A stretch of 64,000 nt of DNA from Escherichia coli (GTDB lineage: Bacteria; Pseudomonadota; Gammaproteobacteria; Enterobacterales; Enterobacteriaceae), in assembly GCF_003018255.1 (NCBI RefSeq), contig NZ_CP027440.1. One strand, given 5' to 3'. The notes beneath the pieces were generated by a model. The model did no database searches. It saw nothing but the letters and a program-made list of their open reading frames with translations, and was not told the DNA's origin. The position numbers were made by a program, and so were the translations under genes. Position 1 is the first letter of the stretch; every line of letters starts with the position of its first letter. This document shows positions 5,305-19,636 of this stretch, piece by piece.

Positions 5305-6138
5305 TCAACGCATATTCAGTTTATTGGCGTGGTACGCAATATGCTCGCCAATAAAACTGGAGACAAAATAATAGCTGTGATCATAACCCTCGTGATAACG
5401 GATTAACGTTTTGATATTCATCTCCTGGCAGATCTTTTCAAGATTTGGAGTCCGCAGCTGTTCTGCGTAAAAATCATCACTCAACCCCTGATCAACCATT
5501 ATTTCCGCAACGCGTTGACCTTGTGAAATAAGACTCACCGGATCGTAATCCAACCAGGCATCTTTATTTTCACCAAGATATGCGGTAAAGGCTTGCTGTC
5601 CCCACGGTACTTGCGATGGGGAGACAATGGGCGCAAACGCCGAGACGCTGACATATTCATCTGGGTTACGTAACGCCAGCACCAGCGCGCCCAGCCCGCC
5701 CATAGAATGACCTGAGATAGACTTTCTGGTCGTTGCCGGAAAATGTTGCATCACTAAATCCGGCAGCTCGTTGCGGATATAGTCATACATTTTGTAATGT
5801 TCATTCCACGGCGCTTGCGTTGCGTTCAGGTAAAACCCGGCACCTTGCCCGAGATCGTAACGGTCGGCATCTGCGACATGACTGCCTCGCGGACTGGTGT
5901 CTGGCGCAACAACAATAATGTTGTGCTCAGCCGCGTAACGCTGCATCCCCGATTTAGTAATGAAATTCTGCTCGTTGCAGGTCAGGCCTGAAAGCCAGTA
6001 CAACACCGGCAATTTTTCATTTGCGGCTTTTGGCGGGAGATAGACGCCGACATTCATTTCACATTTCAGTGATGGGGAATAATGCCGATACACATTTTGC
6101 CAGCCGCCAAAGCTGGCATGTTTTTCAATGAGTTCCAT
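5305..6138 (-). CDS. frmB: S-formylglutathione hydrolase
   Basis: 277 aa; GHSMGG serine-hydrolase motif; recognised as FrmB. Confidence 0.95.
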   Translation of the reverse strand: MELIEKHASFGGWQNVYRHYSPSLKCEMNVGVYLPPKAANEKLPVLYWLSGLTCNEQNFITKSGMQRYAAEHNIIVVAPDTSPRGSHVADADRYDLGQGAGFYLNATQAPWNEHYKMYDYIRNELPDLVMQHFPATTRKSISGHSMGGLGALVLALRNPDEYVSVSAFAPIVSPSQVPWGQQAFTAYLGENKDAWLDYDPVSLISQGQRVAEIMVDQGLSDDFYAEQLRTPNLEKICQEMNIKTLIRYHEGYDHSYYFVSSFIGEHIAYHANKLNMR

Positions 6139-6229: not shown

Positions 6230-7369
<1,140 letters not shown>

Positions 7370-7373
7370 TCAG

Positions 7374-7649
7374 CTATTTAAGATAGGCACGAACCAGTTC
7401 AATAGTGTCGTCAACGGATTGGCTGACTTCGCGGCTGTAGCAGTCATTTCGGTCAAACGTTTCCCGGATATGGCTTTCAAGCACTTCTGCCATCAGTCCG
7501 TTAGCCGCGCCCCGAACGGCAGCGATCTGTTGGAGTATGGCACGGCATTCGGCATCACCCTCCAGCGACCGTTCCAGAGCATCAATCTGCCCCCGAATAC
7601 GACGAACTCGAGTAAGGACCTTTTTCTTCTCTTCCGGAGTACTGGGCAT
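7374..7649 (-). CDS. frmR: formaldehyde-responsive repressor FrmR (CsoR/RcnR family)
   Basis: ATG at 7647-7649 ([10 protein letters not shown]...), 91 aa; track ORF extends 7 codons further upstream. Confidence 0.9.
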
Positions 7650-7672
7650 TTCGCACCTCATCATCTGCACGC

Positions 7673-7726
7673 AATATACTATAGGGGGGTATGTTATATG
7701 TCAATGCATACCCCCCTATAGTATAT
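7673..7726. promoter_or_regulatory. frmRAB promoter/operator inverted repeat
   Basis: Near-perfect palindrome tatactataggggggtat ... atacccccctatagtata directly upstream of frmR, with G/C tracts typical of CsoR/RcnR-family operators. Confidence 0.7.
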
Positions 7727-7833
7727 AACACTGGAGAATAAAATTTATCCGGTGAATGTAGTCGGATAACAAAAAGTAAAGAGGGGCCTAATCGACAGGG
7801 AAGGCCGCCCCGGATAGCGGGCGGCAGAAGGAA

Positions 7834-8607
7834 TCAGAATTTCCAGGTCAGATGGGCTGCAAGTTGCAGACCGTTATAATCATCGGTTGGGGTGTCGTAC
7901 CACACTTTACCTGCCGTCAGCCCGAGATTAAGTTGCTCAGTCAGCGGTTGAATACGTTGCAAACTGACGCTCTTCATGCTGCCGTAGCGTGTTTCTGGCG
8001 TCCAGTCATAGGTGTAAGCACCTGTTCCGCGGCTTAGCCATAGTTGCGTATAACCAGTGCCGCGCGGGTCATTCAGACGCACGGAAATCATATTGCTGTA
8101 ACTACCACCTGCATCGCTGGAGTCATAATGGGTATAGCGATAGCTGGTGATCACCGGGCCTGTATAGAGGGATACGCCGCCTTGCCAGGCATCGACTTCG
8201 ACATCATCGTAATATTTAGTGTAGCGATAACCGGTCGTGAAAAGCGTTTTTGGCAACAGGGCCAGGTTAATATCCTGACGAAAATCCTGGCGGGCAAAGA
8301 CCGGCGTATTATCCGCAAAGGCAATACCCGTTCGGGTTGTCAGCCAGTTATTCCATTTATACCAGACCGCACCCTGACCGCGAGTGGCATTGAAATGTTC
8401 AGTTTCATAATCACGACGCCCCTGGGAAAGATTAAAAAGCAGCGTTGCGTTTTCAACTTTCGCCACCAGTTCAGCATACGCTAAATTACGGTTGCCATGA
8501 TCGCCAGAATAATCGGTAAAATCGTAGCCCGCGGTAATGGAAGTTAACCCGGCATAAGCGGGCAATGTGCTAAATATTGCCGCCGCTAATAACGTCCGTT
8601 TTATCAT
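7834..8607 (-). CDS. yaiO: outer-membrane beta-barrel protein YaiO
   Basis: 257 aa; signal peptide MIKRTLLAAAIFSTLPAYA; alternating aromatic/hydrophilic strands; C-terminal ...HLTWKF. Confidence 0.85.
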   Translation of the reverse strand: MIKRTLLAAAIFSTLPAYAGLTSITAGYDFTDYSGDHGNRNLAYAELVAKVENATLLFNLSQGRRDYETEHFNATRGQGAVWYKWNNWLTTRTGIAFADNTPVFARQDFRQDINLALLPKTLFTTGYRYTKYYDDVEVDAWQGGVSLYTGPVITSYRYTHYDSSDAGGSYSNMISVRLNDPRGTGYTQLWLSRGTGAYTYDWTPETRYGSMKSVSLQRIQPLTEQLNLGLTAGKVWYDTPTDDYNGLQLAAHLTWKF

Positions 8608-8608
8608 T

Positions 8609-9319
8609 TTAATCTCCTGTACGGATAAGTTCTTGTCGGAGTGAATAAGTTCCGGTAGGTAAATTACGTTCTACAACCACGCGCGGGCCAAGTTGCGTGT
8701 TCGGGGAAATAATTCGCCCAGGCAAAATAATAACTTGTACGCCAAGGCGTGAACGCTGCCCGATATAACAACCTAATTTATCGCATCCGGTAGCGATAAT
8801 TCCCTCTGGAGTTCGAACAGACACGGGCTGTTCATCCAGACGATGATTACTGGTTCGTACTTGTGCGCCCAAATATGCCTGGTTTGCAACTACCGAGTCG
8901 GCAATAAAGCATTGCGGACCAATCGTTGCTTCCGCTTCAATAACCGCATTTTTAATTTCGGTGGCAAAACCAATTTTTACGCCATTGCTGATTATTGTGC
9001 CAGGACGAATAAACGCATAATTACCTATCAGGCAGTTTGCGCCAATCACTACCGGACCCTGAATAACGGCACCGTGGCAAATACGGGTATTCGCGCCGAT
9101 AACAACCTCACCGGCACTTTCATCAATAATCACCTGGTCTGCAATCTGAATATTTTTCTCTTTAACATTAAGCTTCAGATAGTTTTTCAGTTCCTGTGAC
9201 AGAAGGGTGGGAATAAGCGGTTGACGCTTCCACCAGTGCGGAATAGCGGGTGGGTTTGTCGCGCTGAGGTTCGCGTCCAGTAAAAAAGGCAATAAGTCCA
9301 TAAATAATCCAGATGGCAT
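8609..9319 (-). CDS. yaiX: hexapeptide-repeat (left-handed beta-helix) acyltransferase-like protein; start codon uncertain
   Basis: Uninterrupted 236-codon frame; repeated [LIV]-G-x-x-x-x-I hexapeptide units (VVIGANTRICHGAVIQGPVVIGANCLIGNYAFI...); upstream end overlaps the yaiP 3' end in another frame; candidate ATGs at 9319 and 9301 lack an obvious SD. Confidence 0.7.
   Translation of the reverse strand: MPSGLFMDLLPFLLDANLSATNPPAIPHWWKRQPLIPTLLSQELKNYLKLNVKEKNIQIADQVIIDESAGEVVIGANTRICHGAVIQGPVVIGANCLIGNYAFIRPGTIISNGVKIGFATEIKNAVIEAEATIGPQCFIADSVVANQAYLGAQVRTSNHRLDEQPVSVRTPEGIIATGCDKLGCYIGQRSRLGVQVIILPGRIISPNTQLGPRVVVERNLPTGTYSLRQELIRTGD

Positions 9320-19577: not shown

Positions 19578-19636
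<59 letters not shown>

Follow-up and report, generated by a model that had tools for sequence, protein, structure and literature searches.

The perfect inverted repeat upstream of frmR in the Escherichia coli DNA analysed here (contig NZ_CP027440.1; the whole 64,000-nucleotide stretch is called the window) consists of two 17-bp FrmR sites in mirror orientation that bracket the predicted −35 hexamer and overlap the predicted −10 hexamer of the frm promoter (Pfrm). These two sites very probably form the frmRAB operator, occupied until formaldehyde releases FrmR. The palindrome is the published FrmR operator of E. coli Pfrm; the element, its repressor, the inducer chemistry and its biosensor use were already known. 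Binding, release and repression, in vitro and in vivo, are taken from published work; this analysis adds the hexamer positions, the conservation of the sites and the taxa in which the second one occurs.

Geometry and significance of the palindrome

The arms of the repeat (7674–7693, ATATACTATAGGGGGGTATG, and 7707–7726, CATACCCCCCTATAGTATAT) are 20 nt each and 100% complementary, and are separated by 13 nt (7694–7706) that vary among E. coli strains. The repeat lies between frmR and yaiO, 26 nt upstream of the frmR ATG (7648, minus strand). The original prediction of a perfect palindrome upstream of frmR described a real element with slightly wrong dimensions: its arms measure 20 nt (18 proposed), its gap 13 nt (about 16 proposed), and its first base is 7674 (7673 proposed). 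The 18-nt arms that it proposed sit 15 nt apart. The G6 and C6 cores were found as described, at 7684–7689 and 7711–7716, and the assignment to the frmRAB promoter directly upstream of frmR agrees with both the distance to the ATG and the predicted −35 and −10 hexamers, which fall within the palindrome.

By arm length the palindrome ranked first among the perfect close-range inverted repeats of the window. The runner-up, at 19594–19623 (TAATGCCCGTCAA / TTGACGGGCATTA), has 13-nt arms and a 4-nt loop. Since shuffling the window 40 times under a first-order Markov model gave longest arms of 9–15 nt, and a back-of-envelope chance expectation is 64,000 x 41 x 4^-20, or about 2e-6, the palindrome is far beyond chance.

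FrmR sites and promoter anatomy

Each arm contains a full 17-bp quasi-palindromic unit, ATAC-N9-GTAT, located at 7676–7692 in the frmR-proximal arm, where it holds the G6 tract, and at 7708–7724 in the frmR-distal arm, where it holds the C6 tract. ATAC and GTAT flank both tracts with zero mismatches, and the two unit centres are 32 bp apart. Because each arm is a complete 17-bp site, the palindrome was read as two operators in mirror orientation. Both units have the make-up of type I operators of the CsoR/RcnR family, namely a G/C tract of 3–8 bp, AT-rich inverted-repeat flanks and a position over the promoter, and the first gene of the downstream operon encodes a member of that family, FrmR (curated equivalog). 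The proposed resemblance to CsoR/RcnR-family operators was thus confirmed, both arms having been described as type I sites in Denby et al. 2016. It had also been argued that the long arms imply more than one repressor tetramer; multiple tetramers are indeed the published model, but arm length per se is not what implies them.

A promoter scan placed a consensus −35 hexamer of Pfrm (TTGACA, 7699–7704, minus strand) in the spacer and a −10 hexamer (TAGTAT, 7676–7681, minus strand) inside the proximal arm. This arrangement, TTGACA-17 nt-TAGTAT with 10/12 matches, was the sole promoter-like site on the frmR strand in 7550–7900. As the arms are perfect mirrors, each with a −10-like TAGTAT, the −35 hexamer in the short spacer alone would give Pfrm its direction. 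The predicted transcription start, near 7669 (minus strand), falls between the palindrome and frmR, and the frm mRNA is therefore expected to lack the repeat; the start is given as predicted, no mapped frmR transcription start having been found in the FrmR literature examined. A Shine-Dalgarno sequence for frmR (GAGGTG, 7654–7659, minus strand), read from the sequence, is kept in the Escherichia alignment. A search of 7550–7900 for intrinsic (Rho-independent) terminators returned none; the stems are AT-rich outside G6, and no T-run comes after them.

The frmRAB operon and the FrmR protein

The first gene of the operon, frmR (7374–7648, minus strand), encodes the formaldehyde-responsive, autoregulated repressor of the CsoR/RcnR family. 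It is followed on the same strand by frmA (6230–7339; S-(hydroxymethyl)glutathione dehydrogenase, TIGR02818, 743 bits) and frmB (5305–6138; S-formylglutathione hydrolase, TIGR02821, 399 bits). The 91-aa FrmR scored 189 bits against NCBIfam equivalog NF008464 (cutoff 133) and just 68 bits against the RcnR model. Its top PDB match was the full-length EcFrmR chain 5LBM (E 4e-55), and the residues of the formaldehyde-sensing subgroup of DUF156 / CsoR-RcnR proteins, namely the sensing Pro2 and Cys35 (in GDAEC35) as well as His60 (in ESH60), are all present in the translation.

The upstream neighbour of frmR is yaiO (7834–8607). Beside it lies an apparently uninterrupted ORF of 236 aa (8609–9319) in the position of yaiX, which in K-12 MG1655 is a pseudogene split by IS2A; in the window this ORF looks intact.

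Published evidence and proposed mechanism

The large inverted repeat over E. coli Pfrm was described by Denby et al. 2016 (Sci Rep 6:38879, PMC5146963) as tandem type I FrmR sites, and the definition of the type I operator, including the G/C tract of 3–8 bp, was taken from the same paper. EcFrmR bound Pfrm with a Kd of ~220 nM, compared with ~3600 nM for control DNA; formaldehyde dissociated the complex, and in vitro transcription was repressed by FrmR and then relieved by formaldehyde (Denby et al. 2016, PMC5146963). The binding experiments with and without formaldehyde that had been suggested for this element are therefore largely in print, with in vitro transcription in addition. The BLItz data in that study were fitted to a 1:1 model, and the model drawn in its Fig. 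6 has two tetramers on the operator; Pro2-Cys35 methylene bridges were reported to widen the separation of the basic patches from ~35 to ~45 angstroms (Denby et al. 2016, PMC5146963). The published experiments used MG1655 DNA, from which the window differs at 7670, 7693 and 7694, all outside the 17-bp sites.

With the Salmonella protein, two FrmR tetramers bound a 33-bp single-site probe, and binding was abolished by mutating one of the flanking T/A-rich repeats (Osman et al. 2015/2016). In a 2024 study, promoter J23100 was given two ATACN9GTAT sites, one upstream of its −35 and the other in its spacer, and then showed FrmR-dependent repression with 40-fold induction. When native PfrmR was shortened in the same study so that both sites were kept and the upstream DNA was gone, repression was lost, which implies that the sites alone may not suffice natively and that flanking DNA or wrapping may matter. 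The FrmR literature examined yielded no footprint or stoichiometry for the E. coli double site. Neither the PDB entries matching FrmR in sequence (E up to 1e-5) nor the searched passages of a 2024 review showed a CsoR-family/DNA co-structure.

According to the mechanism proposed here, FrmR tetramers would sit on both sites when formaldehyde is absent and would keep RNA polymerase off Pfrm, the sites flanking the predicted −35 hexamer in the spacer and the frmR-proximal site overlapping the predicted −10. We infer a minimum of one FrmR tetramer for each of the two E. coli sites. Formaldehyde would cross-link Pro2 to Cys35 between subunits and so spread the DNA-binding patches apart; FrmR would then leave the DNA, and frmR, frmA and frmB would be transcribed, frmR itself included.

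Distribution of the operator across species

One genome per species was surveyed, giving 80 loci with FrmR relatives at 52–100% identity; a frmA homologue lies directly downstream in 75 of them. An exact ATAC-N9-GTAT was present within 100 nt before the start codon in 65/80 species loci (83 hits, 10.4 per kb), compared with 5 hits in the other 398 kb of those loci (0.0125 per kb), an enrichment of ~800-fold. The site consensus across the surveyed loci is ATACTCCCCTATAGTAT, and the G/C tract faces either way relative to the gene (26 vs 7 distinct sites). Sites close to the start codon were found in alpha-, beta- and gamma-proteobacteria, and in these three classes ATAC-N9-GTAT marks frmRA promoters almost universally. 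In loci of the Brucella/Ochrobactrum type the near-start site directly abuts TTGACA.

Most species of the survey have one FrmR site only. Among the 80 loci a second site 32–35 bp upstream was restricted to Escherichia, several other Enterobacterales (some of them plasmid-borne), Aeromonas and Deefgea, and in other two-site species, too, a TTGAC-like hexamer lies between the sites. The second site is not always a mirror copy: in Erwinia endophytica (L017) the two sites, ATACTGGGATATAGTAT and ATACTGGTGTATAGTAT, are 33 bp apart with their G tracts on the same strand, so that they are direct copies and form no palindrome. This distribution points to the proximal site as the primary, ancestral operator and to the distal site as an auxiliary copy, and suggests that the palindrome arose through the addition of a mirror copy upstream of the −35.

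Two groups of loci in the survey deserve separate mention. Near-identical loci were found in unrelated genera, in a Citrobacter MAG (L007), Klebsiella grimontii (L010) and Maribrevibacterium (L012), with an FrmR-like protein that is 91% identical. They have no frmA next to it; an iron-containing alcohol dehydrogenase lies ~690 nt further on. The ATAC-N9-GTAT scan found no distal site in these loci; by eye, their distal site appears to be an N10 variant, ATAC-N10-GTAT. The three loci resemble a mobile FrmR module whose cargo differs. The other group (L008, L009, L011, L013, L014 and L019) comprises frmRAB loci in Pantoea, Edwardsiella (plasmid), Enterobacter, Providencia and Morganella. A stretch of ~100 nt upstream (CCTTCCGAC...ATCACAGCC...) is common to all six, and the operators of L009, L011 and L019 are nearly identical, suggesting that promoter and operon have spread horizontally as one unit.

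Variation within Escherichia

The 81-bp operator region was found as a single occurrence in 5,393/5,426 complete E. coli genomes. A repeated or mobile element (REP/BIME, MITE or IS ends) was considered and rejected: the core motif occurs only at the palindrome locus in the window, and the median number of places per E. coli genome holding the 81-bp region was one. Across 13 aligned Escherichia sequences the arms were invariant save for one proximal-arm base in E. albertii, and substitutions were confined to the spacer and to the region downstream. The majority of the 13 carry GC at 7693–7694, giving 21-nt arms and an 11-nt spacer; K-12 has TC there, giving 19-nt arms and a 15-nt spacer. The allele of the window (GT) is rare, 4/5,393 E. 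coli genomes matching the 81-bp region at 99% or more.

In one isolate, FJ_Ec_21 (L085, NZ_CP143627.1), the 15-nt spacer equivalent to 7693–7707 is the exact reverse complement of that of K-12 (GCATTGACATATAGA vs TCTATATGTCAATGC), and the arms around it are intact. The −35 is thereby gone from the frmR strand, and TTGACA-17-TAGTAT is rebuilt pointing to yaiO. Two queries, the sequence of FJ_Ec_21 and a synthetic flipped form of the commonest allele, were run against the E. coli genomes; among ~5,390 genomes no other with a flipped spacer was found, FJ_Ec_21 alone matching over the full length at high identity. An assembly error could account for the flip, as could a genuine hairpin-templated inversion.

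On the yaiO side, the match ends at about window position 7752, 26 nt past the distal arm, in roughly 1,000 of 5,416 E. coli genomes. EcPF18 (L089), the single strain looked at, lacks yaiO and the genes around it, and its frmR is divergent from tauA. From these partial matches and from EcPF18 it follows that the yaiO-side block is a variable island with an edge beside Pfrm. The breakpoint lies within a small hairpin, TTATCCG-N11-CGGATAA (7741–7765).

Alternative explanations

The main rival to separate occupation of the two sites is that one tetramer of FrmR, or an assembly of higher order, grips both arms with its two faces and wraps or loops the −35 DNA. Bridging was raised by Denby et al. 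2016 (PMC5146963) because the sites are further apart than those of RcnR, which is reported to wrap DNA in work that they cite, and the repression lost with the upstream DNA in the 2024 study hints at contacts beyond the sites. From established DNA mechanics, however, ~32 bp would be far too short for a loop without extreme bending. Among species the distance between site centres also drifts within 32–35 bp, roughly one third of a helical turn, which is more than a rigid bridge would accommodate; for the same reason tetramers probably bind the two sites largely independently. With direct rather than inverted sites in Erwinia, a single site in most species, and Salmonella FrmR saturating one site at two tetramers, bridging was judged very unlikely. 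That the palindrome works as a nucleic-acid structure, either as a DNA cruciform or as an RNA hairpin terminating yaiO read-through or insulating frmRAB, is hardly credible. Its perfect symmetry does go beyond the strict need of two 17-bp sites, and as single-stranded DNA it folds into a very stable hairpin (−19.1 kcal/mol, z = −6.6 vs shuffles) that draws Rfam matches of a generic hairpin type (miRNA precursors). Those matches, however, are far under the gathering scores (30 vs 90 bits), no T-run follows either arm as a terminator would have it, and the predicted start leaves the palindrome outside the frm mRNA. The unit conserved in 65 species is, moreover, the 17-bp site, usually single, and where only one site is present the long hairpin cannot form. 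A known structured RNA was likewise rejected as a candidate, the only Rfam hits being to miRNA models at 19–30 bits, with gathering scores of 80–139.

Because both arms carry a mirror TAGTAT, a flip of the spacer would rebuild TTGACA-17-TAGTAT on the other strand, and recombination or template switching between the arms could make the −35 spacer an invertible cassette, with frmRAB off and a mirror promoter firing towards yaiO. The exact reverse complement of a K-12-type 15-nt spacer between intact arms in FJ_Ec_21 is what such a cassette would produce. It is nevertheless exceedingly improbable, since the flipped form occurs in just 1 of ~5,390 complete E. coli genomes, in a single assembly that could be in error, and no recombinase is adjacent, the neighbours being frmRAB and yaiO. 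A phase-variable flip at the population level was rejected, FJ_Ec_21 being the sole full-length match at high identity in the E. coli genomes. As a recurrent, reversible mutational switch, silencing frmRAB and firing the mirror promoter towards the upstream neighbour, hairpin-templated inversion of the spacer is highly improbable. A related, milder idea is that concerted, hairpin-templated evolution, and not selection for FrmR binding alone, might maintain the identity of the two arms. Differences between the two arms within a species number 0–4/17 and are similar in size to those between orthologous arms, and by eye the same two substitutions in both arms separate E. coli from the plasmid-type lineage (L009). 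Judged from the sequences, these paired substitutions do not distinguish gene-conversion-like repair from selection by FrmR.

Significance

As a discovery the palindrome carries little weight: the observation was confirmed and its interpretation supported, and the element had already been characterised experimentally. Its known uses are in formaldehyde and methylglyoxal biosensors. Variants of Pfrm were reportedly engineered by Sort-seq by Rohlhill in 2017. The value added here is comparative, in that the proximal site is widespread while the mirror second site is lineage-restricted and its spacing not strictly fixed. The residual novelty lies in this comparative picture and in the one isolate with a flipped spacer. 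The comparative points could aid the design of FrmR-based sensors, and they bear on independent versus cooperative binding of the two sites.

Comparison with known operators

The E. coli Pfrm operator of Denby et al. is the same element at the same locus, with two ATAC-N9-GTAT type I sites over the promoter. In their K-12 Pfrm the arms are 19 nt, with TC at 7693–7694, whereas those of the window are 20 nt, with GT at these positions. The distance between site centres was measured here as 32 bp in both K-12 and the window; Denby 2016 gives 31. The frmRA operator of Salmonella likewise has a C6 tract in a T/A-rich inverted repeat that is bound by FrmR, and binding is weakened by formaldehyde (Osman et al. 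2015/2016). By description it is one C6 site, studied on a 33-bp probe that takes two tetramers, whereas E. coli has two sites.

The RcnR operators of E. coli belong to the same repressor family and share the half-site geometry, with TAC(T)...(A)GTA enclosing a G tract, and the number of two sites per promoter. In the K-12 rcnR-rcnA region TACT-G6/7-N-AGTA was found twice, as direct repeats 20 bp apart, whereas the FrmR sites of the window are mirror images 32 bp apart. The G6-7 tract is centred in the RcnR sites; in the FrmR sites it is offset to one side, with TATA on the other. The inducers differ as well, RcnR responding to Ni/Co and FrmR to formaldehyde.
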